Below, one piece after another: positions 2,929 through 60,677 of a stretch of DNA of 64,000 bases. The notes under the pieces are model-generated. The model searched no databases and was not told where the DNA came from. It worked only from the letters and a program-made list of their open reading frames with translations. This stretch comes from Bacilli bacterium. GTDB taxonomy: Bacteria > Bacillota_I > Bacilli_A > RF39 > UBA660. The stretch lies in NCBI GenBank assembly GCA_017541325.1, contig JAFXZI010000014.1, positions 45,741 to 109,740 of the forward strand, given 5' to 3'. The position numbers and the translations under genes were made by a program. The number at the start of each line of letters is the position of its first letter. The first letter of the stretch is position 1.

Positions 2929-4992
2929 TTAGTGATCAACTACTTCGATATTACCGGCTTGATGTTCAATTGTTCCTGTTTTAAATTTTTGATTTGCAAT
3001 TTGAGCACCTGTAAATGAAGTCCAGTTCCACTCTTTTCCAGTATTATTAATGATTTTAACTAAATAAGGGTCATTTGTTGCTGTTTTTGCAAAAATACCA
3101 TTATTCATACTAGTAACATATTTTGGAATAGATACAGTACCATATGTTCTCCAAGTATATGTACCTGATAATTTAGTTATTTTAGTCCCGTCAGGGGCAG
3201 TTTCTGGAATTACAAGAGTTCCTGTTGTTCCTGGATTAGGTCCAACGAAATCTGATATTTCATTGTATAAAATAGTACCATTTGTAACTTTAAACATAAA
3301 TCCGTTATGAATATATTCACTATTATTTGTAATAACGTTATGATAAAAAGTATTAGTATCAATTGTTAAATTTGGTACATCTGATATAGGAGGCAAGTTT
3401 AATGTTTTAATATTACAACTTAAGAATGCTGCTCCTGAAATTTTTGTTAATGTTACCCCTTCTTTTTTTGCTGGTATAGTTAAAGCATAATTAGCAACTC
3501 TTCCTCCACCATAACTAACAATAGTTGTATAATCCCATTTTCCCTTTCCAGGATTATCTGGATCGGCTATTCTTTTATAGAAAATACCATCTATTCCATC
3601 CATTTTATTTTGAACAAATGCTCCTCCTCCAATTGATGTAACAGTATCAGGAATATCAATAGATGATAATTGATTTCCTCTAAATGCAGTTGAACCAATT
3701 GTTTTTAAATTTGCAGGTAATTTAACACTTGTTAAACTATTACTATAAAAAGCAGAACTATTAATTGTTTCTACTGAATCTGGAATAGTAACAGATCCTT
3801 TTAATCCAGCACTTTGGAAAGCACTACTATCTATAGTTTTTAATTGATATCCGTTTTTCCATTCAGGAATTACTATATTTTCTCTTGTTTCTCCACCATA
3901 ACCTACAATTGTAGTAAAGTCTTTTGATCCATTAGACTTTGTTTTATAAATAAATGCATTAGCATCAGTAAAATTATTGTTTGAGAATGCTGCTCCACCG
4001 ATTGTTGCATTACTATTTATATCGATATCTGATAAACAGTTACCTTGGAACGCATATGATCCAATACTCTTTAATGAAGCCGGAAGAGTTACATTACAAA
4101 TCTTATTACTTGCAAATCCATATGAACCTATTTTTTCTAGTCCTTCAGGAAGAATTAATTGTTGAATTTTTGAATTATAAAAACCAAAATCTTCAATTGT
4201 TTTAACTGACTTAGATAGTTTTACGCTTTTTAAATTATTTCCTTGGAATGCTGCATATCCAATTGTAACAATTCCATCATATGAACGAACACTTGTTATT
4301 CCTTTACCTTTAAACGCCCTATTTCCTATTCGTGTTACTTTTAAATTACCTATTTTAGAAGGTATATCAACATCTAATCCACAACTAGTATTATAGTTAG
4401 TTATTGTTATTGTCTCATCTTCATTTTCTTCCCACTCATAACAATCTTGTCCTTGTTCTAAGGTTATATTTACTGTAGGTTCTGTTTTTTCTTTATTTCC
4501 TTCTTCATCGACAATAACTATATTATCTCTTCCACCTATTGGGAAAGAATTATTAATAGTTTTATCATCAGTTACATAAATTTTACCAATTGATAAATCT
4601 TTTTCTGCAGTTAAATCAATCTTATGTCCTGTTTCATCTACACTTACCCAGTAATATTTAAATTCTTTTTTATTATTAATTACTACTACTACATAAGCCT
4701 CAACCCATTTTCCATAAGGACTATCTTTAACAGCACCATTATCTGTTTCTAGATTCTCTATATTATAATAATATGTAGTATTAGTATCTCTTGCTATTAA
4801 ATCATTTTTAGAAAGCATATTTGCACATATTTGAATGTACTCTCTAGCAGTATTAATATATAGTTTTCTTTTACTCTTGTCTATATAGTTTGATATTCCA
4901 AGAATTGCAATCATTCCCATTATACCTAATAATACAACTACTGCAATTATTTCTATTAAAGTAAATCCTTTTTGATTTTTCATAATATTCAC
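2929..4992 (-). CDS. prepilin-type N-terminal cleavage/methylation-domain protein fused to a BspA-type leucine-rich-repeat surface domain
   Basis: 687 aa. N-terminus MNIMKNQKG|FTLIEIIAVVVLLGIMGMIAIL is a classic type IV pilin/pseudopilin class III signal. The C-terminal half carries repeated ~22-aa LRR_5-like units (IGSYAFQGNCLSDIDI, IGGAAFSNNNF, IGSTAFRGNQLSSIDIP...). Confidence 0.75.
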   Translation of the reverse strand: MNIMKNQKGFTLIEIIAVVVLLGIMGMIAILGISNYIDKSKRKLYINTAREYIQICANMLSKNDLIARDTNTTYYYNIENLETDNGAVKDSPYGKWVEAYVVVVINNKKEFKYYWVSVDETGHKIDLTAEKDLSIGKIYVTDDKTINNSFPIGGRDNIVIVDEEGNKEKTEPTVNITLEQGQDCYEWEENEDETITITNYNTSCGLDVDIPSKIGNLKVTRIGNRAFKGKGITSVRSYDGIVTIGYAAFQGNNLKSVKLSKSVKTIEDFGFYNSKIQQLILPEGLEKIGSYGFASNKICNVTLPASLKSIGSYAFQGNCLSDIDINSNATIGGAAFSNNNFTDANAFIYKTKSNGSKDFTTIVGYGGETRENIVIPEWKNGYQLKTIDSSAFQSAGLKGSVTIPDSVETINSSAFYSNSLTSVKLPANLKTIGSTAFRGNQLSSIDIPDTVTSIGGGAFVQNKMDGIDGIFYKRIADPDNPGKGKWDYTTIVSYGGGRVANYALTIPAKKEGVTLTKISGAAFLSCNIKTLNLPPISDVPNLTIDTNTFYHNVITNNSEYIHNGFMFKVTNGTILYNEISDFVGPNPGTTGTLVIPETAPDGTKITKLSGTYTWRTYGTVSIPKYVTSMNNGIFAKTATNDPYLVKIINNTGKEWNWTSFTGAQIANQKFKTGTIEHQAGNIEVVDH

Positions 4993-12764: not shown

Positions 12765-13460
12765 TTAACTTAGTTTTAAATATTCTATTATTACCGGTGT
12801 AAGAATTAGTAATAATATTAATGGTATATAAAATAATACCGATATAACAGAAACCTTTACAGGTATCTTGTTAATGATTGCTTTTATTTTTAATACTTGT
12901 CTTTCTCTTATATAATCAATTTGAGTATATATATCTTCAATAATATCATTACCTAAAGTATTAGATTCAGATATATGAAGAATAATACTATTTACTTCAT
13001 CTGATGGAATTCTCTCTCTTAATGAATCAAGTGCTTCGTTAAGACCTTTTCCATATTTCATTTCTTCTAAAGTAATTTTAAATTCATTAGATAAATCATT
13101 ATCTACATTTATAGTTGCAACTTCTATAGAATCAACTATGCTTTTTCCTGATTCTAAGGAAAGTGCCATTACTTCAAAGAATTCCATAGCATTATACTCT
13201 AAATTATCTTTTCTTTTATTTATTGGAATCTCAATTAAATAATAAGTAATTAATTTAAAATAAATAAAAGTAATAATCGGACTAAGTAAATATCCCCAAT
13301 CAAGCATATATAATAACATGAAAAATATAATTAGAGAAGAAAAAGTTCTAAAGTTAAGAAAGAATATACTACTCATATTACTTTTTCCCATTTTTAATTT
13401 CTTTTCAAATTCTTCTATTTTTTTTCGAGGATAAATATAATACCAAAATTTATTTTTCAT
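12765..13460 (-). CDS. TadC-like type II secretion system F-domain membrane protein
   Basis: 231 aa membrane protein immediately after the tadB-like gene (4-nt overlap). T2SF-like region ...LSLESGKSIVDSIEVAT. Confidence 0.55.
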   Translation of the reverse strand: MKNKFWYYIYPRKKIEEFEKKLKMGKSNMSSIFFLNFRTFSSLIIFFMLLYMLDWGYLLSPIITFIYFKLITYYLIEIPINKRKDNLEYNAMEFFEVMALSLESGKSIVDSIEVATINVDNDLSNEFKITLEEMKYGKGLNEALDSLRERIPSDEVNSIILHISESNTLGNDIIEDIYTQIDYIRERQVLKIKAIINKIPVKVSVISVLFYIPLILLLILTPVIIEYLKLS

Positions 13461-14446
13461 AATTTCACCTCGATGTATACTATTTTTCTAATTATTATTA
13501 TATAGAATACATATAACATTATTATTAACACAAATGCTAAAAATCCTATGGTTGTAGTAAATAAAGTTACAAAGTATGCTGGATTAAGTAATAATAAGAA
13601 TAAAACTAATATCGGTGGCATTGAAACTAAAATACGATAAACGAATCTAGCTTGAGAAGAATTACTTTTAAGTTCTTCTCTTAATTTTTTTCGTGCTAAT
13701 GCATTTTTTTCAATAGAATCAAATACAGATACAATGTTTCCACCAGTTTTACTTAATACACTAATTGAACTAGTTAAGTATGTAGCTTCAACACTTTTTA
13801 CTCTTTTACTAAATCTTTTAAAAGCTTCTTCTATATCTAATCCAAATTTAATATCTTCACTTATACGTTTAAACTCTATAGATATAGGTCCTTGCATCTC
13901 TTTAGCAACTAAGTCTATAGCTTGAATAATACTTTTTCCTGATTTAAAAGCATTATTCATTATTACTATTGCTTCTGAGATATCATTATCTAGTCTATTA
14001 TCTTCATATTTTCCAAGTACATATAAATAAATATCATATAAGAAGAATCCTGCTAAGAAAGATATTAGAATATTTACGATAGTTAGAACATTTTCTTTAG
14101 CAAATGAATTACATATAAGTAATAATAAACATAATAATCCTATAAATATTTTTCTACTAATGTAATTCATATTTGTAAGAAGTTTTTTACTACCTGAATA
14201 CTTTATATATTTTTTACTATAATCATCAAATACATGAGTTTTTATTAGTCTCCTAGATAGTTTTTCTTCTATATTTCTATAACTACTTACTAAAACATCA
14301 ACAATAGAAAGAGTATCATTATCATAATCTACAGTATAATTATTAAATCTTTTAGTTAATTTATAACTGTTATATGATTTTATAAATAACCATACCAATA
14401 ATAGAATTAAACATATTAACAATAATACTAATAAATATAATTCCAT
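13457..14446 (-). CDS. TadB-like type II secretion system F-domain membrane protein
   Basis: 329 aa. TM segments flank a cytoplasmic T2SF-like domain (..NAFKSGKSIIQAIDLVAKEM.. and ..VLSKTGGNIVSVFDSIEKN..). Directly follows the CpaF-like ATPase. Confidence 0.6.
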   Translation of the reverse strand: MELYLLVLLLICLILLLVWLFIKSYNSYKLTKRFNNYTVDYDNDTLSIVDVLVSSYRNIEEKLSRRLIKTHVFDDYSKKYIKYSGSKKLLTNMNYISRKIFIGLLCLLLLICNSFAKENVLTIVNILISFLAGFFLYDIYLYVLGKYEDNRLDNDISEAIVIMNNAFKSGKSIIQAIDLVAKEMQGPISIEFKRISEDIKFGLDIEEAFKRFSKRVKSVEATYLTSSISVLSKTGGNIVSVFDSIEKNALARKKLREELKSNSSQARFVYRILVSMPPILVLFLLLLNPAYFVTLFTTTIGFLAFVLIIMLYVFYIIIIRKIVYIEVKL

Positions 14447-14459
14447 ATTTTACTCCTTT

Positions 14460-15812
14460 CTATTTTTTCTTAGTTGTAGTCTTTTTAGTAATTTTATTTT
14501 TTGCTTTAGATTCAAACATATCTAAAACAATTCCTTTATTTTTAATTTTTTCATATATTTTTGGTACATTTTCATAAAGAATAAATTCTCCGTTTACTTC
14601 TTTATTTTCAGTTATACCATGCTTTAAGAATGCAAATATATCTTCAATAATAATATTTTCTCCATCAAATCCAGTTATTTCTGAAATATTAGTAACTTTT
14701 CTTTTACCATCACTTAATCTTTCAACCGATATTACTATATCAATAGCACTATCTATATACCCTCTAATAGCTTTAATAGGCAATTCTACTTCGCTCATAA
14801 GAATCATTGTTTCAAGTCTATTTAATGCATCTTTTACTCCGTTAGCATGTAGAGTGGTTAATGATCCATCATGACCTGTATTCATCGCTTGTAGCATATC
14901 AAACGCTTCTTTACCACGAACTTCACCAACTATTATTCTATCAGGACGCATACGAAGAGAGTTTCTTACTAAATCTCTTATTGTTATTTCTCCTTCTTTT
15001 TCATAGTTTTCAGTTTTAGTCTCAAGTGAAATAACATGTTCTTGTTTAAGACGAAGTTCAACTGCATCTTCAATAGTAATTATTCTCTCATCATTAGGAA
15101 TAGATCCTGAAAGAACATTTAAAAGTGTTGTTTTACCAGAACCAGTTCCTCCACATATTAAGATATTTAATCTTGCTTTAATACAAGCATCTAAGAAAGT
15201 AGCCATATATGGAGTTAATGTACCATTTCCTATTAAACTATCCATATCTTCAACATCATCTCTAAATTTACGAATAGTTACAACTGGCCCCTTTACTGAT
15301 AATGGTGGAATAATAGCATTTATTCTAGATCCATCAGGAAGACGAGAATCTACCATTGGGTTACTACTATCAATAGTTCTACCTAGTGGTTGAATGATAC
15401 GACTTACTGTTCTTATTATATGTTCATCATTAATAAATGAAACATCATAATCACGAGATATTATACCATCTACTTCAATATATATTTCATCAGGAGAATT
15501 AATCATTATCTCTGTTACATTTTTATCTTTTAATAATTCTGTAATAGGTCCAAATCCATTTAATTCATTATTAATAAGATTTTTTAAATAGTCTCTTTGT
15601 TCATTTAAAAGATCATATTCAACTGCAATTCTATCTATTACTTCTTCTATATTTTCTTCTTCTATTTCATGAGAATCAATTAATTCTTGAATAATCTTAA
15701 TACGTAATTTATCAAGTTCTTCTTTATTCTCAAAAATATCATAATCAGTATTAGTATAAGTATTGGAACTATTATCTTCTAAATTGAACTCTTCCATCCA
15801 ACTATTATTCAT
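14460..15812 (-). CDS. cpaF: CpaF/TadA-type pilus assembly ATPase (VirB11/GspE superfamily)
   Basis: 450 aa. Walker [17 protein letters not shown], plus the [34 protein letters not shown] block characteristic of CpaF/TadA. Confidence 0.9.
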
Positions 15813-16563
15813 AATCTTCCTCCTCTACTAAACTACGTATATTATTACTAAATGTTTCATATTCTTTTTTAGCTTCACCAGTAAATATTTCATTAAAATT
15901 AATTATTTTTTCATCCATAACTAATTCATTATAATTATTTATAAATAATTTATTACTTATAGAATAATCTAATTTTTTAATTACTGTTTTTATATCATAA
16001 ATATCATAATTATCTTTAATATCTCGATATGATTTATTTAGTAGTACAACAACATTATCTACTTTCATATTTTTAGTTATAGAAATGAAACTCTTATTAA
16101 TTTCTAAATTATAAGCATCATCTCCAACTATATCTATAATCTTCATACTTTTATCAAAAAGAAGCATATTAAGTGGGCTTAAAGTATTATTTGTATCAAT
16201 TACTATATATTCATATGAATACATTAATAAATCTAAAACTTGAGACAATGCTTTTACATCTATTTTAGATGATAATCTCATATCTATAGGAGCAGGAATA
16301 AAAGATAAGTTATCTCTTACATAATAAGTATATGGAGTAGAACTTTCATATTTTTTATTTCTTAAATCATCACACATATTATAAATAGTCTTTTTAGGTT
16401 TAATACCTAGTGCAAAAGCAAGATTTCCTCCATATAAATCTAAATCTATTAAAAGAGTACTTTTATTTTTACTTAAAATATCTGCAATCATCATTGAAAC
16501 AGTAGTTTTACCTACTCCACCTTTCATAGATGTTACAGTTATTATCTTAGCTTTATTCTTCAT
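15805..16563 (-). CDS. CpaE/TadZ-like ParA/MinD-family ATPase
   Basis: 252 aa. Deviant Walker A SMKGGVGKTTVS at the N-terminus. Overlaps cpaF by 8 nt. Confidence 0.75.
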   Translation of the reverse strand: MKNKAKIITVTSMKGGVGKTTVSMMIADILSKNKSTLLIDLDLYGGNLAFALGIKPKKTIYNMCDDLRNKKYESSTPYTYYVRDNLSFIPAPIDMRLSSKIDVKALSQVLDLLMYSYEYIVIDTNNTLSPLNMLLFDKSMKIIDIVGDDAYNLEINKSFISITKNMKVDNVVVLLNKSYRDIKDNYDIYDIKTVIKKLDYSISNKLFINNYNELVMDEKIINFNEIFTGEAKKEYETFSNNIRSLVEEEDYE

Positions 16564-17341
16564 CTAACCAACTCCTATTTTTATTATAATTATTTATTAT
16601 ATTATTTTCTGTTAATAACATATCATATGATTTTACATATTTAATATTCTTAGTATTAATAATTAAATCTCCACTTAAATTATCTATTTCTTTTATAAAG
16701 TCTCCATTTAAATATAGACGTGCTTTGTTAGTACCAACTAAATCTATAATATTTCTTTCATTAACTGGACCAATTAAAATATCATTTAAATACAGACTAT
16801 TATTACTTATAAAGAACCTACTATTACCAATCATAAATTGAGTATCATCTAAATTAGTAAAACCAATTTCTAAAGAATAATTTTCTAAATCAAAATTCTT
16901 TATATTAATTACACCATTAATTATGTTGTAGCCTCTACCATCTAAACTATTTACTTCATTATTATTTATTTCAAAATACATTAAAATATTACTTGTATAT
17001 TTTACTTCTTTTTCTGATGTAACAGTATATTTATCCATACCTATAATTTTTCCAAATATAGGTTTTATATCTTTATGCGTTTTTATATAAATAGATCTGT
17101 TTTCTATTTTTACTTCATCTATAACGATATCTTCATCATTTAAACTATATAATAATTTAATATCTTCATTAGAAACATCAATCTTTTTATTTAAACTAGT
17201 TAAAATATCTTTATTAACGTTATCTAAATAATTTTTATTATAAAACATCAAAGATGAATCTATAATAAAAGCTAAAGCAAGTGTAATAATAGGTAGTAAA
17301 AGTAAGAATAATACCAGTACTTGTCCTTTATTATTCTTCAT
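16553..17341 (-). CDS. TadE/TadG-like pilus assembly protein (pseudopilin-like N-terminus)
   Basis: 262 aa. N-terminus MKNNKGQVLVLFLLLLPIITLALAFIIDSSL resembles a TadE-like N-terminal domain. Overlaps neighbours on both sides. Confidence 0.5.
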   Translation of the reverse strand: MKNNKGQVLVLFLLLLPIITLALAFIIDSSLMFYNKNYLDNVNKDILTSLNKKIDVSNEDIKLLYSLNDEDIVIDEVKIENRSIYIKTHKDIKPIFGKIIGMDKYTVTSEKEVKYTSNILMYFEINNNEVNSLDGRGYNIINGVINIKNFDLENYSLEIGFTNLDDTQFMIGNSRFFISNNSLYLNDILIGPVNERNIIDLVGTNKARLYLNGDFIKEIDNLSGDLIINTKNIKYVKSYDMLLTENNIINNYNKNRSWLDEE

Positions 17342-17684
17342 TATTAATAGTCCTTTCTACTTTAACACTATATGGATCTTTTATTATTCTATTAATTCCT
17401 GGAGTCATTAAATCAACATCTTTAGTAATAATAATTGTTGTAATAGAACCCTTATCAGTAATATCAACATTAATATTTTTGTATCCAATACTAGCTAGAT
17501 ATGACTCTATTTCATCATTATCACTATTCTTTTGATATAGTGAAATAACTTCATTACTAACTCCTTCTAATTTACTATTTTCAAGTATTATTCTTCCTAA
17601 ATCTAAAAATGAAAAGAGAAGTAATATTATTACTGGTAATATAAGAACAAATTCAATAAGTGCTTGACCCTTATTATTCTTCAT
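17331..17684 (-). CDS. TadE-like pseudopilin
   Basis: 117 aa. N-terminus MKNNKGQALIEFVLILPVIILLLFSFLDLG matches the TadE/TadF motif (G-Q-A-L-I/V-E-F, hydrophobic helix). Confidence 0.65.
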   Translation of the reverse strand: MKNNKGQALIEFVLILPVIILLLFSFLDLGRIILENSKLEGVSNEVISLYQKNSDNDEIESYLASIGYKNINVDITDKGSITTIIITKDVDLMTPGINRIIKDPYSVKVERTINNEE

Positions 17685-17746: not shown

Positions 17747-18898
17747 TTAAATATCATGAATATTTATTGTAGTATCCTCTTCTGTATCTTTTCTAAATAT
17801 ATCTTCTTTTCTTAACCTATAATTACTAATTATTAACTGCTCTATATTTCTATCTAAAGTTATATAATCTTCTCTATGAAGGGTATTTATTACAAGTCCC
17901 CATATATTAGCTTCTTTAATTGGTTTTGTTTTTAAAGAAAGACTATATATTCCTAAAAGATCCATATTAAATAATTCTTCTAAAGTTCTTTTATCAATAT
18001 CTTTTATTTTTCTTAAAACAAAATCATAACTAGAAGATACAAAATGTTCAAATGCTCCTAGTAATTTATCTTTACCACCAATAGTATTTAATAACTGATT
18101 AATAGTTAAAGCAAAGAAATTATAATTTATCTTTCTAAAAGCTTCATTTTTATATAAAGATTTAGGTAATGAATCACTAGCTGGATCAAAGAAATAAAAT
18201 CCATCTGCTTCATATTTAGAATCTTCTATATAAATTACAGAAACATATTCAGTATCATCTCTTTTAATTGGAACAATATAAACAGGAATATTTAATCTAG
18301 ATAATATTTCTTTAAATAGATTATTAAATCCTAAAGAATTAGTTTTTCTAGTTCTAACTATATCTGGTAATCTATCACTACTAGTTCTATCTAAATCAAG
18401 TAATTTAACAAAATCATATACTTCCTTTACCTTTTCTAGAGGTGACATTTTCTTATCAATAGATAATATTACTATATTAATATATTCCTCCATCATTCTA
18501 TAATTTGGAAGAGTTGTTATTTGATAAGTACCATCTTTATAACTATAAGAAAATTTCCAAGAATCAGGATTTTCATAAGGAAAAGATAATAATTCCTTAA
18601 CTTCATCCGGATTATTATCTCTTAAAACTAATTTTTCGACACTACTATCAGTAATCATAGGAGATAATTCTAAAACATGTTTAATTGTTTCTATATCTCT
18701 AACTTGAACCTGATCTCTAAAAGTAACTTGCGCTACTGTATTTATAGAAAATAGCATTTTCTTTACTTCTTCTAAAGTGTCAGCAGTTATAGGGGTGCTG
18801 AAGTCTAGATTGGTAATTCCAATGTATTTTAGTAGTTCTTCATCAATTGTCCCTAAATCGGATTCGAAACCATTTTCCAACTCAAAACACCCTCTCAT
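17747..18898 (-). CDS. hypothetical cytoplasmic protein (383 aa) between ddl and the tad genes
   Basis: Long stop-free ORF with no TM segment or signal peptide. 10-bp gap to ddl and 62-bp gap to the tadE-like gene. No family recognised. Confidence 0.5.
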   Translation of the reverse strand: MRGCFELENGFESDLGTIDEELLKYIGITNLDFSTPITADTLEEVKKMLFSINTVAQVTFRDQVQVRDIETIKHVLELSPMITDSSVEKLVLRDNNPDEVKELLSFPYENPDSWKFSYSYKDGTYQITTLPNYRMMEEYINIVILSIDKKMSPLEKVKEVYDFVKLLDLDRTSSDRLPDIVRTRKTNSLGFNNLFKEILSRLNIPVYIVPIKRDDTEYVSVIYIEDSKYEADGFYFFDPASDSLPKSLYKNEAFRKINYNFFALTINQLLNTIGGKDKLLGAFEHFVSSSYDFVLRKIKDIDKRTLEELFNMDLLGIYSLSLKTKPIKEANIWGLVINTLHREDYITLDRNIEQLIISNYRLRKEDIFRKDTEEDTTINIHDI

Positions 18899-18908: not shown

Positions 18909-20099
18909 TTACTTTAAATTTTTAACCCCTTTAGTACCTTTAGCACCTTTTAATCCACTAAATCCACTTAAAATATTAGTATCAAATGAATTTATTTTAC
19001 CAGTTTTCTTTTTATAATCTTTAACACCTATGTTAATTAATTCATCAAGAAGTTCAGTATAATTCTTTCCAGCTGGTTCCCATAAATAGAAAGCTAAACT
19101 TCCAGGAATTGTATTAACTTCATTAATATATACTTTTTTCTTTTTATTATCGATTAAGAAATCTATTCTTACATCTCCACTTAGGTTAAGAGCTTTGCTT
19201 GCTTTAACAGCAATGTCTCTAACTTCACTAGATAATTTTTCTGATATATCAGCAGGAATCTTACGAGTAGCAGAAAGCATTCCTTTACTTCCACTACCTT
19301 TCTTTCCACCAACATATTTATCTTCATAAGTAAGAAGTTCATTACCAGTTAATACTCTTTCAATTACACTAGTATCATATCCATCAGGATTTCCTACAAC
19401 ACTAATATTAACTTCGCAAAGATTTTTAATTACTTCTTCTACAACAATCTTACTATCATATGTAATAGCTTCTTCTACTGCTTTTTGTAATTCTTCACGA
19501 TTACTTGCAATATTTATACCTACAGAACTACCTAAAGTAGCTGGTTTAACTATTACTGGATATTTTATTTGTTCTATCATCTTTAAAACCTTTTCAGGAT
19601 TATCTTCATATTCAGAATCAAAGAACCATACATATTCAGGAATTGGTAATCCTTCACTACCCCAAATTTGTTTTTGGAATACTTTATCTTGTCCAATAGC
19701 AGCTCCTGCAATGTCACTTCCTACATATGGAATACCAATTGTTTTTAAATATCCTTGTAAAACTCCATCTTCAACATTAGTACCATGAACAATTGGAAAA
19801 GCAATATCTATTTCTTTAACTACTTTTCTAAATCCTTTCTTACTTTGAAGAACAAATGAACCATACTTATTACGATATAGTACTACATTTTTACCATACT
19901 TTCTAAGTAGACTCATATCTTGGAATGTTTCTATTTCATTTAAGAAGCTTCCTGTATACCATTCTCCATTTTTATCTATATAAATAGGTACTATTTCATA
20001 TTTCTCAGCATCCATTTTATTCATAGCTTGAATAGCTGAAATAATACTTACTTCGTGTTCAACACTTTCTCCACCAAATATAACTCCTACTTTTATCAT
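18909..20099 (-). CDS. ddl: D-alanine--D-alanine ligase, with a ~35-aa Gly/Lys-rich C-terminal tail
   Basis: 396 aa. N-terminus MIKVGVIFGGESVEHEVSIISA, plus ATP-grasp blocks (..PVIVKPATLGSSVGI.., ..EVNTIPGS..). The tail ..SGFSGLKGAKGTKGVKNLK is beyond the normal Ddl end. Confidence 0.9.
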   Translation of the reverse strand: MIKVGVIFGGESVEHEVSIISAIQAMNKMDAEKYEIVPIYIDKNGEWYTGSFLNEIETFQDMSLLRKYGKNVVLYRNKYGSFVLQSKKGFRKVVKEIDIAFPIVHGTNVEDGVLQGYLKTIGIPYVGSDIAGAAIGQDKVFQKQIWGSEGLPIPEYVWFFDSEYEDNPEKVLKMIEQIKYPVIVKPATLGSSVGINIASNREELQKAVEEAITYDSKIVVEEVIKNLCEVNISVVGNPDGYDTSVIERVLTGNELLTYEDKYVGGKKGSGSKGMLSATRKIPADISEKLSSEVRDIAVKASKALNLSGDVRIDFLIDNKKKKVYINEVNTIPGSLAFYLWEPAGKNYTELLDELINIGVKDYKKKTGKINSFDTNILSGFSGLKGAKGTKGVKNLK

Positions 20100-20111: not shown

Positions 20112-21752
20112 TTATTTTTCGTTATATGTATCAGGTAAATCATTTTCAAATAATGCATATATTTTTTTCTTAGTTTTCATACTATTAAGTATCATATAAG
20201 CTTTAGTAACATCATTTATTATTTCAATATCTGATTCTTTAAAACCTTTTTCTTTTAATCCTTCAAGTATAGGTTTTGTTTGTTTTTCTCCAACTAGTAT
20301 TACATGATCTGCAACTTCTGCTATATCCTTACCAAATTCTTTATTATAGTATTCTTCTTTATCTCCTAATTCTATCATTCCAGGAGTAACAACTACTTTA
20401 TATCCATCCATCATATTAAGGACTTCTAAAGCTCTTTTTGATCCTTCTGGATTAGAATTATATGCATCATCTATAAATACAAATTTTGGAAAATTCTTCA
20501 TACTTAAACGATGTTCAATTGGTTTTAATCTACCAACTGCTCTTTGTAAATGTTCTACATTGATTCCAAGTTCATAACCTAATGCTAAACAAGAAATAAT
20601 ATTATAAACATTATGCTTTCCAAGAAGTCTTGTTTTAAACTCATATTTCTTTTTATCACCTTTAAATTCTACTGTAAATGTTGTTCCTTCATGATTAACT
20701 TTAATCTTACTAGCACGTACATCAACATCATCTTTAGTATCTATTCCTACCCAAAGTAGTTTACAATGATTTTTATTTTTAAATTTATAATTCTTTTGTT
20801 TTTCATCATCTCTATTTAAAACTCCAACTCCATCTTCTGGTAGATATTCAATTAATTCCATCTTTCCTGATTGAATATTTTCTTCACTACCAAATGTTTC
20901 TAAATGAGCTGTACCAATCTTTGTAATTATTCCATATTTAGGATTTACTAGTTTACATAGTCCATTTATTTCACCTTTAACATAAGCACCCATTTCTGCA
21001 ATAAATACTTCATCAAATTTAGATAATGAATTATTTACTGTTATCATAAGTCCATTAAAAGTATTTAGACTTTTTGGAGTAGCTAGTACATTATATTTTT
21101 CACTTAAAATCTCATTTAAAAAGTTCTTAGTACTAGTTTTTCCATAACTTCCAGTTATTCCAACTACTTTTAAATTTTCCATACTAGCTAGTTTTCTTTT
21201 AGCTTTTTTTTCAAAATGTCTATATACAAAATACTCTATTGGTTTATTAATTAAATAAGCAATATATACTACATAATAATTTAGTACTGACATAACAGAT
21301 AATAATATTATAGAATCACATAAACGTGGAAAATCTATTTTAGTATCTACTAAGATAAATTGTACTGTAATACCTAAAGCACAAACAATAAGATGTAATA
21401 ATATTAAAGTAGCTATAAGTCTTTTAATTCTTGCAGTATATACTAATGGTTTCTTATTTTTTTCCTTCTTTTTCTTTTTTTCTTTTAATAGACAATATCC
21501 ATATAAAATAATAATTAAAGCAAGGAAATAGTAAGAAATTAAAGTATCAACACATAAAGCAAATAAAGAAACGAAGATGATTCCATATATATCTATGTTG
21601 GTAAACATTTCTTTTTTATTCTTCCATACCCATTTTAAGTATCTATTGTTCTCATTATATAGATTTTGCTGAAGCATATGTAATGCCCTTCTAGTTTTTA
21701 ACATTGAATAGATAAAAACTATTGCCATTGTCACATAAATTCTAATTAACAT
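20112..21752 (-). CDS. murF: MurF-like Mur ligase (UDP-MurNAc-tripeptide--D-Ala-D-Ala ligase family) with an N-terminal ~185-aa polytopic membrane domain
   Basis: 546 aa. Residues ~195-546 carry the Mur ligase P-loop VVGITGSYGKTSTKNFL and the MurF-like C-terminal DDAYNSNPEGSKRALEVL block. Residues 1-185 form about five hydrophobic helices with K-rich loops and no stop codon in between. Confidence 0.8.
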   Translation of the reverse strand: MLIRIYVTMAIVFIYSMLKTRRALHMLQQNLYNENNRYLKWVWKNKKEMFTNIDIYGIIFVSLFALCVDTLISYYFLALIIILYGYCLLKEKKKKKEKNKKPLVYTARIKRLIATLILLHLIVCALGITVQFILVDTKIDFPRLCDSIILLSVMSVLNYYVVYIAYLINKPIEYFVYRHFEKKAKRKLASMENLKVVGITGSYGKTSTKNFLNEILSEKYNVLATPKSLNTFNGLMITVNNSLSKFDEVFIAEMGAYVKGEINGLCKLVNPKYGIITKIGTAHLETFGSEENIQSGKMELIEYLPEDGVGVLNRDDEKQKNYKFKNKNHCKLLWVGIDTKDDVDVRASKIKVNHEGTTFTVEFKGDKKKYEFKTRLLGKHNVYNIISCLALGYELGINVEHLQRAVGRLKPIEHRLSMKNFPKFVFIDDAYNSNPEGSKRALEVLNMMDGYKVVVTPGMIELGDKEEYYNKEFGKDIAEVADHVILVGEKQTKPILEGLKEKGFKESDIEIINDVTKAYMILNSMKTKKKIYALFENDLPDTYNEK

Positions 21753-21761
21753 AAGTACCTC

Positions 21762-22490
21762 CTATACAAATTCATTAATTATATTAGTAACTTGATTTAA
21801 GTTTTCTAAATAAGCATAATGTGTTGAGTTAGGTAGAATTATTAAAGCAGCATCTTTAAATAATTTTTCTGTTTCTTTAGCTTCTTCTATACTAACTTCA
21901 GTATCATTATCTCCCCAAATTAAAAGTGTTGATGCAGAGACCTTTTTAGCACAATCTGATAAGTCTTCATTAACTGTCTTAACAAGAATATCTCTCATCA
22001 TTGGACTTGCAGCTTTATAATCTCTACTTCCAATATGACGTTTTGCAAATCCTTCTAATTTATTTAATCCTGGAACCTTTTTAAGTTTCTTTAAGATTCT
22101 AACTTTTAAACTAAGTTTCTTTTCTTTACGAATACAAGGACTTCCAAAAAGAATTAATTTATCTACATCATTACGTGATGCATAAACTATACTAATCCTT
22201 CCTCCAAATGAATGACCTATCATCGTAGGATTTTTTACTTTTAACTCGTTTAATAATTTTTCTACAACCTCATTGTAATCATAAATATTCATTACTTCTT
22301 TAGGTTCATCAGATCCTCCAAATCCAGGAAGATCAATTATTATTATGTGATATTTATCTTGTAGTCTATCAGCAAGAGGTCTCATCATTTCTATATTTTG
22401 TCCCCAACCATGTAAGAATACTAATGTCTTACCTTTTTTATTACCATATTCTTTATAATTTATGTCTATATCATTAATATTAAGTTTCAT
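21762..22490 (-). CDS. alpha/beta-fold hydrolase
   Basis: Motifs LVFLHGWGQN and the nucleophile elbow IGHSFGG. I place the start at MKLNIN (GGGTG RBS 5 nt upstream) rather than the track start at 22535, which lies inside the upstream terminator. Confidence 0.75.
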   Translation of the reverse strand: MKLNINDIDINYKEYGNKKGKTLVFLHGWGQNIEMMRPLADRLQDKYHIIIIDLPGFGGSDEPKEVMNIYDYNEVVEKLLNELKVKNPTMIGHSFGGRISIVYASRNDVDKLILFGSPCIRKEKKLSLKVRILKKLKKVPGLNKLEGFAKRHIGSRDYKAASPMMRDILVKTVNEDLSDCAKKVSASTLLIWGDNDTEVSIEEAKETEKLFKDAALIILPNSTHYAYLENLNQVTNIINEFV

Positions 22491-22511
22491 ATTTACACCC
22501 AATATAATTAT

Positions 22512-22543
22512 AAACAAAAAAAGGTTTAAATACAAACCTTTTG
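22512..22543 (-). terminator. rho-independent terminator after yqeG-yqeH
   Basis: aaaaggttt(aaatacaa)aaacctttt hairpin immediately below the yqeH stop. Confidence 0.5.
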
Positions 22544-32663: not shown

Positions 32664-33764
32664 ATGAAAACTATTGGTATTATTTGTGAATATAATCCAT
32701 TTCATAATGGTCATATTTATCATATTAATAAAATAAAAGAATTATTTCCTGATTCTTTAATCGTTTTAGTAGTTACTAACAATTTTACTGAACGCGGAAG
32801 TATAAGCGTTTTAAATAAAAAAGAAAAAACAGAAATTGCTCTTAATCATAATATAGATTTAGTAGTAGAATTACCATTTAAATTTGCTTGTTCTAGTGCT
32901 GATACTTTTGCAGAAGGATCTATAAAAATACTTAAAGAATTAAAAGTAGATTATTTAGTCTTTGGTAGTGAATCAAATAATATAGATAAATTAATTAATC
33001 TAGCTAATATTCAATTAAAAAGCAAAGAGTATTCTAGTTTAGTTAAATCTTATCTAAAAGAAGGAATTAATTATCCAACTGCTTTATCTAAAGCATTAAA
33101 AGAAATAACAAATACAACTGTTGAAGAACCAAATGATCTATTAGGTCTTTCTTATGTTAAAGAAATAATTAAACAAAAAACAAATATTAACGCAATAACT
33201 ATAAAAAGAAGTAATGATTATCACAAAAGTTCTACAGATATTAGAAATAGTTTAAATAAAAATAGTATAAAAGAATTTGTTCCTGATGATGTATACAAAG
33301 TACTTAAGAATAAAAAAGATATTGATTACTTTAAATATATAAAATATAAAATATTAACAGATAAAGATTTATCTATATATTTAGATGTAGATGAAGGTAT
33401 AGAAAATAGATTATTAAAATATATAAATGAGTGTAATAATTTAGATGATTTTATAAAACATATAAAGACCAAAAGATATACTTATAATAAGATTAATAGA
33501 ATGTTAATACATATATTAACTTCTTATACAAAAATAGATAATAATACAAATTTAGATTATATTAGAATACTCGGATTTAATAAATTAGGAAAAGAATACT
33601 TAAATAAGATAAAGAAAGATATTAATGTACCAGTAATAACTAATATAAAAAAGAAAGATGAAGTATTATTAAATACAGATATTAAAGTAGAAAAAATATA
33701 TAGTTTAATAACAAATAATGATCTTAATAGTTATAAAGATCCAGTAATATATTTAGATAAATAA
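32664..33764 (+). CDS. tmcAL: tRNA(Met) cytidine acetate ligase (YlbM/UPF0348 nucleotidyltransferase)
   Basis: 366 aa. N-terminus MKTIGIICEYNPFHNGHIYHI (HxGH of the family). AAAGGAGG RBS. Candidate promoter TTTTAC-16-TATAAT at 32614-32641. Confidence 0.85.
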   Translation: MKTIGIICEYNPFHNGHIYHINKIKELFPDSLIVLVVTNNFTERGSISVLNKKEKTEIALNHNIDLVVELPFKFACSSADTFAEGSIKILKELKVDYLVFGSESNNIDKLINLANIQLKSKEYSSLVKSYLKEGINYPTALSKALKEITNTTVEEPNDLLGLSYVKEIIKQKTNINAITIKRSNDYHKSSTDIRNSLNKNSIKEFVPDDVYKVLKNKKDIDYFKYIKYKILTDKDLSIYLDVDEGIENRLLKYINECNNLDDFIKHIKTKRYTYNKINRMLIHILTSYTKIDNNTNLDYIRILGFNKLGKEYLNKIKKDINVPVITNIKKKDEVLLNTDIKVEKIYSLITNNDLNSYKDPVIYLDK

Positions 33765-33796: not shown

Positions 33797-36700
33797 TTAA
33801 TAGTAAACAGTTGCTCCGTTACATGCTACATCTCCATAAGAAGCTGTACATGAGCTTGTTGGATAATATGTACCTGTTCCTGACCAACCATTCCATATTT
33901 TACATCCCCAAGCTGCACTATAACATGATTTTGCACATGTATCACATACAAACTCGGTTGTAGATTGATAATGACATGTACAGAATTGTTGTGAATCATC
34001 AGTACCTGTTCCTGTATCAGAACAAGAACATACGTGAGGACTACAGAACGCTCTACATCTTGCTTCAGCTCCTGTACCTCTAAAGGCATTGTCTATTGTT
34101 TTTCCAACACAGTTACAATCTTCTGTTCCACATACACTTGAACTTGGTCCACCCCAATTATGTTGATAACATGTATTCTTTTGATACATATATGCTGATG
34201 ATACAGATACAGTACAACTATTTGTTAGCCCTGCACCGTTTGTACATGTATATGTTTTATCAGATGTTTGATTAGTATTTGAGAAAGAAGCTGTTACAAC
34301 ACCACTTGTACCGTCTGCACATGTTGCTCCTGTTGTTACCCCATTTGAATGATATTGATGGGATTTACTTGGTGTACATGACGGAACAGATGCATCTCTC
34401 TTAAATTTTATTGAACATGTATTAGTGTTTCCAGCATTATCTTTTATATGTCCTGTATATGTTACACTTTTTGTATCAGTAGTATGTGATGCTGTTTTGC
34501 TTCCAGTTACTGAATCTATTCCATATGATGCTGTTCCACTTAAGTCATCTCCAGTATTACCTTTTCCACTTACAAAGCTAACACTTACATTTGATGTATA
34601 CCAATTATCATTTCCAACTGTTCCAGATGTAGTTAACTTACAATATGGTTTTGTTTTATCTAGTTTAAACCAAATCTCACATTTATTTGTTCTTCCTGCT
34701 TTATCCTTTATATATCCATAATATGTTATTCCTGATGTTGTTGTATTAGTAGATTGTGTTTTCTTTGTGCTTTTATTATAACTTGGCGTTGCTGATGTTG
34801 TTATATCCCATGATGCTTTATCACTCATTGAATTATCTTTTTTAACATCTTCATATTTTTTAAATGTTACATCTACATTTCCTTCTTTATACCAATTATT
34901 ATCTCCTTTAGTACCAGTAAGTTGTAATTCACATGTAGGATTTTGTGAATCTTTTTTAACTACACTACTACAATCTTTTAAGTTTCCAGCATTATCTCTT
35001 ACATATCCATACCATGTATGACTTGTTGTATCTTTTGTTTGAGTTCCTGTATCATTTCCATTATATTCTAATCCACTTGAATTTTTTAATCCATAGTTTC
35101 TTGTTCCTGATTTTGTATATTTATTTGCAATTTCAGCATTATCATCTTTTGTTAATTTAACTGGAACATTTTCCCAGAAATAATCATTTTCATGTCTTAC
35201 GACTCTATCACTACCAAATGTTATTGTACATTTTGGCTCTGTTTTATCTATATTTGTTATTTCTCTTGTTTCTGGTAAACTTTCATTTCCTGATGTATCT
35301 TTTACTTTCATTATTACTGTTGCAAGAGTTGGATAAGTATAACTATTATCTTTTTGCCATGGATTATTATCAAATTTGTAGTCTCCTCTTCCTGATACTG
35401 AGTCTGTTGCATTTATATATAATGTTACATCTCTATTTGTATAATATCCTACTGTATCATCTCTTGTTAATAATTCTATTCTTGTTACATTATTTAACTC
35501 TGTTGCACTTGCAAATGATATTTCTAAATTACTAAATGAAGTTGGAGTTGCAAAATAGTTTCTTGCCTTTGATGTTGATGTTGGAATTGTTACAGTTAAT
35601 GTTTTATTTTTTACTGTATCTTTTATTGTTGCAGTTCCACCCTTTCCTGATGCCATATATACATATACTCCATATATATTACCGTACTCACCAGTTATGC
35701 TCGTTAAACTAATTTTTGTTGATGTTTTAGAAGCAAGTAAATCAGCTTTATCTTTTTCTGTACCTACTCCATATACTACTGTTCCATAGTCTATTGATTT
35801 AATAACTGGAATTACTGGATCATATGGAATTTCTCTATAACATGTTCCTACATTTCCAGCATTATCTTTTACATATCCATATACTGTTGTTATACCATCT
35901 TGTACTTCATATTCTGTTTCTTTATTAAAGTCGTAATTACTTCTACTAACTCCCATTCCATATGTTGCAATTCCACTTGTATCTCTTTCATCTACTTTTA
36001 ATTTAACTACTGGTCTTGGACTTGCTTTATACCATCCATTTTCCCCCATAGTTCCTTCAACTTCTAATGTACATTTTGGTGGTGTTTTATCAATATAAAC
36101 ATCTACTGGACACGCATTTGTTTTTCCAGCATTATCGGCAATTGTTATTGTTCCAGTTTCTCCTTCTTCAGTGAACTTCTTTGTAAACGTATCTTGAACA
36201 CATCCTGTACAATTATCACTACATCCAATAGTTATAGTTCTATCTTTATTTGTCCACACTTTAGAATCTCCTTGTGCAACACCACAAAGAGGAGGTTCAT
36301 CATCCATTTCTTCAGTACAAACACGTTGTGGTGGAATTCTTTTACTTAAATCTTCACATTTTCCTGATTGATAATCTCCACAAACTAAACATACTTCATA
36401 TGATAAATTTGTTATGTTTGGTCCTTCATTTTTAACTAAAACGAAACTTTGGAAAGGATCACAATCTTTAGAATCATCTTTAGGATCTCTTAACTTATTT
36501 GAATATCCTGTAGATATTAATTCTGATAAAGTTACTTTTTTATACTTATCTACTCCAGGAATGCAAATAGTATCATTTTTTTCTACACATTCAGTCATTA
36601 GATTTTGTGCAGAAACCTTCATATCAGCTTCATACATTTTATAAGTATTATTTCTTGTATCAATTATGTACCTTGAAATAGCAGGGAATAATAAACCCAT

Positions 36701-36943
36701 TAATAAACCTAGCAATACTACTACTGCTAGCATTTCTATCAAAGTAAAACCAAAACCAATTGTACCATTCTTTTTTTCATGTTTCTTTGGAGTTTGGTCT
36801 TTTCTTTTTATATTTGTTTGTAAAACTTTAATATCTTTTTTAGGTTTTTTAGTAGTTTTTGCTTCATTAGTAACCTTTTTTGTAATCTTTTTATTGTTAA
36901 TACTACTACTTTGTCCCCTTTTTTTAGTTTTATTCTCACTCAT
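33797..36943 (-). CDS. giant surface protein: K-rich 62-aa leader plus prepilin-like GFTLIE hydrophobic segment, ~100-aa Cys-pair repeat modules, extremely Cys-rich C-terminal domain
   Basis: 1048 aa. ...KKNGTIGFGF|TLIEMLAVVVLLGLLMGLLFPAIS pilin-type N-terminal domain. Four modules each ending YGY[VI][KR]D[NK]AG[NR]-x3-C (VYGYVKDNAGNVGTC, WYGYVRDNAGNLKDC, YYGYIKDKAGRTNKC, YTGHIKDNAGNTNTC). The last ~150 aa contain ~30 Cys and are Gly/Ser/Thr-rich. Confidence 0.7.
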   Translation of the reverse strand: MSENKTKKRGQSSSINNKKITKKVTNEAKTTKKPKKDIKVLQTNIKRKDQTPKKHEKKNGTIGFGFTLIEMLAVVVLLGLLMGLLFPAISRYIIDTRNNTYKMYEADMKVSAQNLMTECVEKNDTICIPGVDKYKKVTLSELISTGYSNKLRDPKDDSKDCDPFQSFVLVKNEGPNITNLSYEVCLVCGDYQSGKCEDLSKRIPPQRVCTEEMDDEPPLCGVAQGDSKVWTNKDRTITIGCSDNCTGCVQDTFTKKFTEEGETGTITIADNAGKTNACPVDVYIDKTPPKCTLEVEGTMGENGWYKASPRPVVKLKVDERDTSGIATYGMGVSRSNYDFNKETEYEVQDGITTVYGYVKDNAGNVGTCYREIPYDPVIPVIKSIDYGTVVYGVGTEKDKADLLASKTSTKISLTSITGEYGNIYGVYVYMASGKGGTATIKDTVKNKTLTVTIPTSTSKARNYFATPTSFSNLEISFASATELNNVTRIELLTRDDTVGYYTNRDVTLYINATDSVSGRGDYKFDNNPWQKDNSYTYPTLATVIMKVKDTSGNESLPETREITNIDKTEPKCTITFGSDRVVRHENDYFWENVPVKLTKDDNAEIANKYTKSGTRNYGLKNSSGLEYNGNDTGTQTKDTTSHTWYGYVRDNAGNLKDCSSVVKKDSQNPTCELQLTGTKGDNNWYKEGNVDVTFKKYEDVKKDNSMSDKASWDITTSATPSYNKSTKKTQSTNTTTSGITYYGYIKDKAGRTNKCEIWFKLDKTKPYCKLTTSGTVGNDNWYTSNVSVSFVSGKGNTGDDLSGTASYGIDSVTGSKTASHTTDTKSVTYTGHIKDNAGNTNTCSIKFKRDASVPSCTPSKSHQYHSNGVTTGATCADGTSGVVTASFSNTNQTSDKTYTCTNGAGLTNSCTVSVSSAYMYQKNTCYQHNWGGPSSSVCGTEDCNCVGKTIDNAFRGTGAEARCRAFCSPHVCSCSDTGTGTDDSQQFCTCHYQSTTEFVCDTCAKSCYSAAWGCKIWNGWSGTGTYYPTSSCTASYGDVACNGATVYY

Positions 36944-47912: not shown

Positions 47913-48734
47913 ATGATAAATATGAATAAAAACAAATTAATAATAGTTAGTATTATTTGTATCTTATTATTTTCTTTTAGTTTTTATTATATATCTTTTA
48001 ATAAAGAGAAAAATAATAAAGAAATTAATAAAAAAGACGAACCAATTATAAATAATGAAAAAGATGATAATAAGAAAGATGAAGAAACGCAAGTAATAGA
48101 TAGTACAGAAACAAAAGATGATAAACAAGAAGTAACCGAAACAAATACTAATACAACTACAAACAATACTAATACTACTAAAGAAACAACTACTAATACT
48201 AAAAAGAGTAATACAACTTCTACTAGCAAAAGTAATACAACAAAAAAGAGTAATACTAATACTAGTACAAATACAAAAAAACCAACTAGTCAAAATAATA
48301 CTAATCATTCTAGTAGTACTACTCAACAAAATAATAACACAAGCACTAGCAGTAACAACAATAATACAAGTAGTAGTAATAACAACACTTCTACTACACC
48401 ACCAGAAACACCTTCAACACCTACAATTACATATTCTTGTCCTAGTGGATATACTCTAAATGGTACTAAATGTACAATAACTGTAAATGCTAGTTTAGTA
48501 TGTCCAGATAATACAACGGAATCTATTAATGATAGTTGTATCAATCTAAGTGAAGGGTATGAAAGTCAAAGCGAAGAATGTCCAAGTGGATATATTATGA
48601 TTAAAATGATTGGTATTGGTATACCTGATAAATATATGTGTCATCCTGCACACTCAAAAGTATATAGATGTGAAAGTGGTTATACTTTAAGTAATAATAA
48701 ATGTACTAAAACAATTGATGCAACACAAAATTAA
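47913..48734 (+). CDS. membrane-anchored protein with Thr/Asn/Ser-rich mucin-like stalk and C-terminal Cys-repeat domain
   Basis: 273 aa. N-terminal TM segment (LIIVSIICILLFSFSFYYI). About 110 aa of T/N/S low complexity. C-terminal tandem motif C-x-SGYTL-x-[GN]-x-KCT (CPSGYTLNGTKCT, CESGYTLSNNKCT). The overlapping minus-strand ORFs are low-complexity mirror frames. Confidence 0.6.
   Translation: MINMNKNKLIIVSIICILLFSFSFYYISFNKEKNNKEINKKDEPIINNEKDDNKKDEETQVIDSTETKDDKQEVTETNTNTTTNNTNTTKETTTNTKKSNTTSTSKSNTTKKSNTNTSTNTKKPTSQNNTNHSSSTTQQNNNTSTSSNNNNTSSSNNNTSTTPPETPSTPTITYSCPSGYTLNGTKCTITVNASLVCPDNTTESINDSCINLSEGYESQSEECPSGYIMIKMIGIGIPDKYMCHPAHSKVYRCESGYTLSNNKCTKTIDATQN
48090..48420 (+). repeat. 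low-complexity coding repeat (acaa/acta/aata-rich) encoding the T/N/S stalk
   Basis: Degenerate short repeats (aatactaatact, acaactac...) are visible in the DNA. They translate to TNT/NNT/SSS runs. Confidence 0.6.
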
Positions 48735-52914: not shown

Positions 52915-52999
52915 TAATATCACCACACTTTATTATTATCTATTTTAATTATAACACGACTAAAGATTTAAATAATTCTATTTGACAACTAATCCGTAA

Positions 53000-60231: not shown

Positions 60232-60677
60232 TCTTCTATTACCTTCCTTGTTTTATTAATGGAAGAAATAATGTCTCCCTTATTATTCTTTGAAAATTCT
60301 GGTTCATAATACTCTTTAATTAGATCATATAAAATACCAGTATCTTTTTCTTTTATTTCCGATAAACTACTTTTAAGTAAATCTATATCTGTAGCATCTA
60401 ATACAAAACTTCTTATTAAAACACTCAATCTATTATAAGCAGTTCTACTTTTTATTTTATTAGAATTTATTTCATTATAAAGACTATCTATTTGATATAG
60501 ATATTTCTTTTTTATTATTAAAATATCTTTAGTTATAATATTATTCTTTGGGGTTGGTTTATGTTTAAAAAGTACATATAAAAAATATGCTACTAAAGAT
60601 ACAAGTAATATTATAAAAAGAATAAAACCAACGATATTATAACTAAATTGTCCTTCTAAACTAACTTTTGACTGCAT
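60222..60677 (-). CDS. small membrane protein of the MoxR-VWA operon
   Basis: 151 aa with one TM segment. Overlaps both neighbours by a few nt. Confidence 0.5.
   Translation of the reverse strand: MQSKVSLEGQFSYNIVGFILFIILLVSLVAYFLYVLFKHKPTPKNNIITKDILIIKKKYLYQIDSLYNEINSNKIKSRTAYNRLSVLIRSFVLDATDIDLLKSSLSEIKEKDTGILYDLIKEYYEPEFSKNNKGDIISSINKTRKVIEEWK

Follow-up and report, generated by a model that had tools for sequence, protein, structure and literature searches.

Can a MurF-type ligase give up the domain that holds its substrate and carry a membrane domain in its place? Textbooks describe MurC to MurF as soluble enzymes with a UDP-binding domain 1 that is taken as part of what defines the family. 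In MurF (EC 6.3.2.10), which is normally soluble and adds the last two D-alanines to the cell-wall precursor, this is an alpha/beta domain of about 80-90 amino acids (aa) that binds the UDP end of UDP-MurNAc-tripeptide. The question is raised by a gene on the minus strand of a 64-kb stretch of DNA from a Bacilli bacterium (contig JAFXZI010000014.1, positions 45,741 to 109,740; hereafter ‘the window’), in which a preliminary description had seen a MurF-like ligase whose N-terminal domain is replaced by five hydrophobic helices. We find the encoded protein, here termed TM-MurF for its transmembrane (TM) helices, to be a membrane-integrated MurF-type ligase with a complete catalytic unit at the cytoplasmic face of the membrane, in which domain 1 is gone except for its last helix.

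The extended reading frame is genuine

The TM-MurF gene is an open reading frame (ORF) at 20112..21752 of the minus strand, starting with ATG and encoding 546 aa. The ORF itself, domain profiles, full-length homologues and an AlphaFold model divide its product into a membrane domain, a linker helix, and the central and C-terminal domains of a Mur ligase. An obvious concern is that the protein really starts at Met191, the upstream 190 codons being a separate or spurious frame, or that a diverged domain 1 is present after all. All that speaks for such an artefact is the atypical length of the protein and the in-frame Met191 just before the P-loop strand. Against it, the first ATG is preceded, with a 5-nt spacer, by the Shine-Dalgarno sequence AGGAGG (21758..21763, minus strand; upstream sequence ...GTATAGGAGGTACTTATG), which overlaps the stop codon of the hydrolase gene upstream, whereas Met191 has no comparable site. 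At the 77% AT content of the first 570 nt of the gene, 190 stop-free codons have a probability of ~4e-9, and each of the other five frames contains 8-26 stops. The same single ORF with conserved N-terminal motifs recurs in hundreds of independent assemblies, falling into more than 240 clusters of full-length homologues, and the N-terminal region yields a confident all-helical membrane model unlike the alpha/beta domain 1. Artefact and diverged domain are thus refuted by the Shine-Dalgarno site, the stop statistics, the homologues and the model, and we assign them a negligible probability. That the stop-free stretch is no artefactual extension, as initially argued, is thereby borne out, and the internal start then named as the counter-case finds no support at Met191.

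Five predicted transmembrane helices take the place of domain 1

A Kyte-Doolittle scan located five hydrophobic segments within residues 1-168, with K/R-rich loops between them. Combined with the positive-inside pattern and the AlphaFold helices, it delineates a predicted five-TM domain (21249..21752, minus strand) with TM1 at residues 1-19, TM2 at 53-68, TM3 at 73-92, TM4 at 109-132 and TM5 at 144-167. Modeled alone with AlphaFold, the N-terminal domain came out all-helical (pLDDT 91.9, pTM 0.86); the full protein, for which the preliminary description had proposed such a model, reached a pLDDT of 86.7 and a pTM of 0.74.

We derived charge and conservation from an alignment of 66 family members. 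The two loops assigned to the cytoplasm are strongly basic, with K/R and D/E counts of 6.3 and 1.4 in loop 1 (residues 20-52; conservation 0.79) and of 6.0 and 1.0 in loop 2 (residues 93-108; conservation 0.82), as is the linker helix (residues 168-192; K/R 6.0, D/E 2.1, conservation 0.72). The outward turns (residues 69-72 and 133-143) are low in K/R, slightly acidic and poorly conserved (0.05-0.33); the five TM helices are low in both K/R and D/E, with conservation of 0.46-0.61. By the positive-inside rule, this pattern implies a five-TM topology with the N-terminus outside and the C-terminus inside, which would place the ligase at the cytoplasmic face of the membrane. Conservation in both cytoplasmic loops comes close to that of the ligase part (residues 193-546; 0.83) and is slightly lower in the linker helix, suggesting selection on the surface facing the ligase rather than on an outward-facing or pore-like feature.

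The conserved elements comprise HMLQQNxYNxxNRYxKW (residues 25-41; HMLQQNLYNENNRYLKW in the window protein, 21630..21680, minus strand) in the first cytoplasmic loop, the basic KKPLVxTxRxKR (residues 100-111; KKPLVYTARIKR, 21420..21455, minus strand) in the second, and NxPxE (residues 169-173) at the start of the linker. Family alignments showed M26, Q28, Q29, N30, Y32 and W41 of the first motif and K100, T106, R108 and R111 of the second to be invariant; a core of Q, Y, W, K-P-L, T, R, R, P and E is kept into the Clostridia branch. The NxPxE motif and the long amphipathic linker helix (residues 169-192; 21177..21248, minus strand) were delimited by the AlphaFold helix spanning residues 158-190, alignment to canonical MurF and the match to the MurF structure 3zl8. 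This helix runs from TM5 to the P-loop strand and aligns with the last helix of canonical MurF domain 1. Everything upstream of it has been exchanged, pointing to a precise domain swap. In domain 1’s place stand ~75 cytoplasmic-loop residues, rich in K/R, Asn/Gln and Tyr/Trp, together with the linker helix, a number close to the size of the lost domain.

Pfam has no family that covers the membrane domain, the N-terminal domains of 24 members returning sub-threshold membrane domains of unknown function (DUFs) only, and the fold search gave no solved-fold match to it. On sequence and model, the five-helix domain appears as a true replacement of domain 1 and not as a diverged version of it, the region being all-helical, hydrophobic and without a match to the MurF profile. 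The proposed five-helix replacement therefore holds.

The catalytic unit is of MurF type, with altered C-terminal motifs

By sequence, residues ~192-546 correspond to the central and C-terminal domains of a MurF-type ligase. The Pfam model Mur_ligase_M (PF08245) marks the central ATP-binding domain at residues 199-391 (E 5.8e-41; 20580..21158, minus strand), and Mur_ligase_C (PF02875) the C-terminal domain at residues 414-523 (20184..20513, minus strand). Among 23 NCBIfam matches, TIGR01143 (murF) was the best (238 bits); it aligned residues 192-516 to profile positions 72-385 of 418, leaving positions 1-71, that is, domain 1, without counterpart. The best solved relatives by sequence were MurF structures (4qdi, 1gg4 and 3zl8, aligned from residue ~181-196 on, 3zl8 from 181), the organisms represented being A. 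baumannii, E. coli, T. maritima and P. aeruginosa. Querying Foldseek with the AlphaFold model gave this ranking again, with MurF on top, over ~365 aligned columns that cover the ligase part only. Profile and structures alike thus confirm the loss of domain 1. The preliminary description had the ligase domains begin at about residue 195; their presence stands, though with the linker helix counted the start moves to residues ~175-192.

The P-loop GITGSYGKTSTK and the MurF-type DDAYNSNP block (residues 428-435), both noted at the outset, are indeed present, and GITGSYGKTS, E253, H283, K297 and DDAYNSNP were invariant in the 66 aligned members, K297 occupying what we take to be the carbamylated lysine position of Mur ligases. 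Set against two canonical MurF sequences, all TM-MurF members in the comparison deviate in two other motifs: GDMxELG is changed to TPG(M/L)xELG (TPGMIELG, residues 456-463), and KGSRGMxxE with the final helix is replaced by L(F/L)ENDLPDxY followed by the stop codon. In the window protein, the latter family-specific motif reads LFENDLPDTY (residues 534-543; 20124..20153, minus strand) and lies beyond the end of the TIGR01143 match.

A MurF-like ligase cut by a contig end (L026:2-1135, from the metagenome-assembled genome (MAG) ‘bacterium JPMR_maxbin.023’) carries motifs between those of canonical MurF and TM-MurF, namely …IIMPCLIELG… and, C-terminally, …LIEGRVSKE…. Judged by these motifs, it could mark a transitional lineage.

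TM-MurF is a large family of uncultured Bacilli and Clostridia

We found more than 240 clusters of full-length homologues of 515-574 aa in uncultured Bacilli and Clostridia. Within 5.8 billion proteins, the window protein retrieved at least 120 clusters at 58-99% identity (512-546 aa), nearly all with 94-100% query cover; a Clostridia member (L022) retrieved at least 120 further clusters at 50-63% identity (547-574 aa), plus one 100% self-match. The closest reference-genome loci belong to uncultured gut ‘Bacilli bacterium’ MAGs from rabbit, mouse, chicken and human, including Candidatus Faecenecus, and full-length versions occur in Clostridia and Oscillospiraceae MAGs at 34-38% identity. Cluster-member records of TM-MurF were MAG entries only, and an exact look-up gave no record of the window protein. 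The contigs that carry the gene include ones of 1.04, 1.31 and 1.32 Mb, suggestive of small genomes.

When 1.84 billion representatives were searched with a profile of the N-terminal domain (184 positions), 1,322 proteins matched at E ≤ 1e-3, and 542 did so at E ≤ 1e-10. All 20 complete proteins (≥500 aa) among these matches were 515-559 aa long, and in them the ligase begins at residue 174-209. Of the matches of at least 215 aa, 87 of 92 run on into the ligase, and the other five read like frameshifts or chimeric assemblies; the membrane domain is thus known solely as the N-terminus of this ligase. Searching with the N-terminal 190 aa alone returned mostly gene fragments on short contigs and no new architecture. 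Public databases label the proteins ‘UDP-N-acetylmuramoyl-tripeptide--D-alanyl-D-alanine ligase’ or ‘Mur ligase middle domain protein’, and we found no description of a membrane-domain MurF architecture in the literature. TM-MurF therefore represents a large, widespread and apparently undescribed family of membrane-embedded MurF proteins.

A serine hydrolase and Ddl accompany TM-MurF

In the window, the gene order is yqeG-like HAD phosphatase, YqeH GTPase, alpha/beta hydrolase, TM-MurF, Ddl and a 383-aa protein. The gene directly upstream of TM-MurF (21762..22535, minus strand; Pfam Abhydrolase_1) encodes an alpha/beta-fold serine hydrolase resembling family V lipases/esterases; its listed TTG start is probably over-extended, the true start being Met16 at 22490. 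The nearest NCBIfam family is EstV family V lipase (154 bits, under the cutoff of 300), and its nearest solved relatives are lipase/esterase-type alpha/beta hydrolases. The motifs HGWG, GHSxGGR and WG..D and the final His are intact in Bacilli and Clostridia. Among 30 TM-MurF loci spanning at most 21 kb, 24 have the hydrolase immediately before TM-MurF (22 of 26 distinct ones, as L031-33 and L034/35 each repeat one protein), and the genes often abut or overlap.

Downstream of TM-MurF lies ddl, encoding a D-alanine--D-alanine ligase of 396 aa (18909..20099, minus strand; Pfam Dala_Dala_lig_N and _C) with its own GGAGG. The adjacency noted in the preliminary description stands and is conserved from Bacilli to Clostridia; the gap, given as 13 nt, measures 12 nt. 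With 307.7 bits against NF002528 (cutoff 262), the protein is a bona fide D-Ala-D-Ala ligase. It is also long: family models stop at residue ~364, followed by a Gly/Lys-rich C-terminal tail (…GFSGLKGAKGTKGVKNLK). The ddl gene follows TM-MurF in most Bacilli loci; among Clostridia, the loci L022, L024 and L034 have the two genes side by side, and L020 does not. In Clostridia, the trio is flanked by TsaE, TsaB and RimI upstream and a glycoside hydrolase downstream. That hydrolase, TM-MurF and Ddl stay together from Bacilli to Clostridia while their flanks change is good evidence for a functional module, in which the serine hydrolase is probably a partner of TM-MurF. The hydrolase appears dispensable, however, as a Bacilli subclade (L007, L011, L013 and L025; ~9.4-16.5 kb) has neither it nor ddl next to TM-MurF. 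There, TM-MurF sits between pilin-like (N_methyl) genes, two ABC exporters are also among its flanking genes, and a class B penicillin-binding protein is encoded 3 kb downstream. The upstream hydrolase, the cytoplasmic-loop motifs and the altered C-terminal MurF motifs are three features absent from the preliminary description.

The 383-aa protein right after ddl (17747-18898, minus strand) matched nothing in Pfam or PDB, even with E values of up to 1 allowed, and holds this position only in the closest relatives (L002, L003, L005, L023 and L031-33). It is followed by a Tad/Flp-type pilus cluster (12765-17684, minus strand) with a pair of TadE-like pseudopilins, one ATPase each of ParA/CpaE-like and T2SSE type, and two T2SSF platform proteins. 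The initial suggestion that TM-MurF might couple D-Ala-D-Ala addition to an envelope process involving these tad genes did not survive comparison: the adjacency is not conserved, relatives carrying topA/polA or a glycoside hydrolase after ddl, and we reject a functional link.

No other Mur ligase was found within the window, nor was a second MurF in the window or in ~700 kb of related loci, to which the search extended. The only other Mur ligases found near TM-MurF in relatives, within 10 kb of it, were a MurC (L006) and a MurE (L031). Both were considered as canonical MurF candidates and rejected, the former because it matches the MurC profile from position 1 on (360.9 bits) and is a MurC of full length and canonical type, the latter by its MurE motifs DYAHT, GGxxxKR and DDPRYE. 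Remodeling appears confined to the MurF step of the pathway.

Relation to known Mur ligases

TM-MurF shares with canonical MurF (TIGR01143; PDB 1GG4, 4QDI, 4CVK and 3ZL8) the central and C-terminal domains, the P-loop, the catalytic Glu/His/Lys, DDxYNxNP, the last helix of domain 1 and the genomic partnership with ddl, and matches it best by both sequence and fold. It differs in carrying a five-TM domain with conserved loops instead of domain 1, in being an integral membrane rather than a soluble protein, in having TPGMxELG for GDMxELG and LFENDLPDxY for the KGSR motif and helix, and in its sub-cutoff score. MurF is thus its closest relative, yet TM-MurF falls outside the curated family with respect to domain 1, the score cutoff and the C-terminal motifs.

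The poly-gamma-glutamate synthetase PgsB/CapB is likewise an ATP-dependent amide ligase of the Mur-ligase superfamily that works at the membrane and has an N-terminal hydrophobic anchor. Unlike TM-MurF, it has a single anchor, polymerizes glutamate and is partnered by PgsC and PgsA. There was no PgsB/CapB model among the 23 NCBIfam matches of TM-MurF, whose neighbors are the hydrolase and Ddl.

A precedent for a Mur-ligase homologue that has lost its UDP-binding domain and works at the membrane is MurT of the lipid II amidotransferase MurT/GatD (PDB 6GS2 and 6H5E). MurT has no domain 1 and acts on lipid II; its describers argue that such a domain would collide with the membrane. In structures of MurE and MurF, the diphosphate of the substrate lies where domain 1 borders the central domain (PMC6113224). 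Unlike TM-MurF, MurT is a soluble protein that lacks TM helices and whose short N-terminus is disordered; it bears a Cys4 zinc ribbon as well as a C-terminal domain of the DUF1727 type, and amidates D-Glu with the glutaminase GatD. In TM-MurF, Pfam gives Mur_ligase_C and no DUF1727; no glutaminase was found among the neighbors examined, and MurT structures rank below those of MurF and MurE in its fold search.

That the MurF N-terminus tolerates change is also indicated by MurE-MurF chimeras of the B. pertussis type (PDB 8F5D), in which the MurF ‘cap’ is missing and another polypeptide takes its place (PMC10214165). Unlike TM-MurF, these chimeras are soluble proteins that retain domain 1 apart from the cap. 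The accompanying survey of Mur fusions examined only Mur proteins of >600 aa (PMC10214165) and would therefore miss a family of 515-574 aa.

The likely acceptor of TM-MurF

We lean, at somewhat better than even chances, towards TM-MurF being a membrane-anchored D-Ala-D-Ala-adding enzyme with UDP-MurNAc-tripeptide as acceptor. Co-transcribed Ddl would supply D-Ala-D-Ala; TM-MurF would use ATP to activate the residue-3 carboxylate of the MurNAc-tripeptide precursor and add the dipeptide, its juxtamembrane loops substituting for domain 1 by holding the diphosphate/nucleoside end of the precursor; and the pentapeptide product would be released beside MraY. This acceptor is favored by the canonical MurC and MurE in related genomes, by the polar, Asn/Gln/Tyr-rich loop, which would suit a nucleoside or sugar, and by the fact that no change in MraY would be needed. 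We further infer that TM-MurF is the only MurF of these small genomes. Several observations weigh against this reading. The UDP-binding domain is lost just as in MurT, which acts on lipid II, and this points to a lipid-linked acceptor; a five-helix domain also exceeds the needs of a simple anchor. The added group might not be D-Ala-D-Ala, since the altered TPGMxELG and LFENDLPDxY sit in the Mur-ligase domain that binds the incoming amino acid. Against the curated TIGR01143 cutoff of 288.6, the window protein reaches 238 bits and the Clostridia member L022 (L022:9872-11536) 215 bits, and all MurF equivalog models likewise score far under their own cutoffs.

The main alternative, which we consider less probable, is that D-Ala-D-Ala is added not to the UDP precursor but to undecaprenyl-PP-MurNAc-tripeptide, that is, the tripeptide form of lipid I/II. 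In that case, the tripeptide form would be what MraY transfers, leaving the final ligation to take place on the lipid carrier at the membrane, with the membrane domain binding the polyprenyl diphosphate. This could be the main route or serve repair and salvage; in the salvage variant, TM-MurF would mend stems that have lost D-Ala-D-Ala, possibly assisted by the co-inherited serine hydrolase. The full replacement of the UDP-binding domain by a membrane domain speaks for such an enzyme, and the boundary between domain 1 and the central domain, where the substrate diphosphate binds in canonical structures, corresponds to the membrane surface in TM-MurF, at which the conserved basic KKPLVxTxRxKR is located. 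MurT, which is among the fold matches, offers a precedent for lipid II as the substrate of a ligase without domain 1 (PMC6113224), the five-helix bundle, well packed in the model, could hold a polyprenyl tail, and the lipase/esterase-like partner hints at lipid chemistry. On the other hand, MraY would have to use the tripeptide efficiently, the polar QQNxYNxxNRY loop resembles a site for a nucleoside or sugar more than one for a lipid, the TM helices are the least conserved part of the protein, and MurT manages without any membrane domain.

It is unlikely that TM-MurF is an accessory paralogue, with a canonical MurF encoded elsewhere, that joins D-Ala-D-Ala or another amine to a different membrane-associated carboxylate, for instance on a lipid or glycopolymer, in a reaction reversed or edited by the hydrolase. 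The C-terminal substrate-side motifs unlike those of all canonical MurF proteins examined, the scores under the MurF family cutoff and the conserved neighborhood of a serine hydrolase with intact catalytic motifs would all fit such a role. They are outweighed in our view by the tight coupling to Ddl in two bacterial classes, by host contigs of 1.0-1.3 Mb that suggest reduced genomes, by the lack of a second MurF in the related loci and the window, and by MurF being clearly the nearest family for the whole catalytic unit; moreover, one subclade does without the hydrolase beside the gene.

Other features of the window

The window is an ordinary chromosomal region that also encodes aminoacyl-tRNA synthetases, pyruvate kinase, GreA, a MOP-family flippase and a PAP2 phosphatase, besides the Tad-type pilus cluster and a MoxR/VWA cluster. 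The latter is BatA-like (57639-62522, minus strand) and comprises a MoxR AAA ATPase, a DUF58 protein, an ORF without assigned function, two VWA proteins and a TPR protein, with LemA and DUF3137 genes just upstream (62578-63978). A 687-aa protein (2929-4992, minus strand) combines an N-terminal prepilin-type methylation motif with BspA-type leucine-rich repeats and, from these sequence features, would be a pilin-anchored, adhesin-like leucine-rich repeat protein. For four large minus-strand ORFs (33797-36943, 45507-47045, 49465-52926 and 55016-57556; 1048, 512, 1153 and 846 aa), Pfam gave nothing at E up to 1e-5. All 2-kb bins show a negative GC skew, at a GC content of 22-31%. Among ORFs of 150 aa or more that either match Pfam or are not overlapped by a larger ORF, all but two (32664-33764 and 47913-48734) lie on the minus strand. 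Skew and orientation together suggest a single replichore with strong gene-strand bias.

Implications

A large family across two Firmicutes classes has swapped MurF domain 1 for an integral membrane domain. Since both branches of the family score under the curated cutoff, pathway reconstructions of these uncultured lineages that rely on hidden Markov models or KEGG orthologs may wrongly call murF missing, and such false absence may in turn lead to an inferred dependence on scavenged muropeptides. A survey of peptidoglycan genes in RF39, RFN20 and ML615J-28 reported pathways with ‘steps missing’, without specifying the steps (PMC10868615); a sub-threshold MurF could contribute to these, and K01929/murF did not occur in one supplementary file of that survey.

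If TM-MurF is the only MurF of its hosts, part of the gut microbiota builds its cell-wall precursor with a membrane-bound final ligase. This would bear on the coupling of the cytoplasmic and membrane stages of peptidoglycan synthesis and on substrate recognition by MurF, and would affect whether MurF inhibitors aimed at domain 1 or the interdomain cleft spare or hit these hosts. If the acceptor proved to be lipid-linked, the order of steps in a supposedly universal pathway would differ in these lineages. Peptidoglycan synthesis would then follow a reordered pathway, and TM-MurF would be the first of the MurC-F series to be embedded in the membrane.

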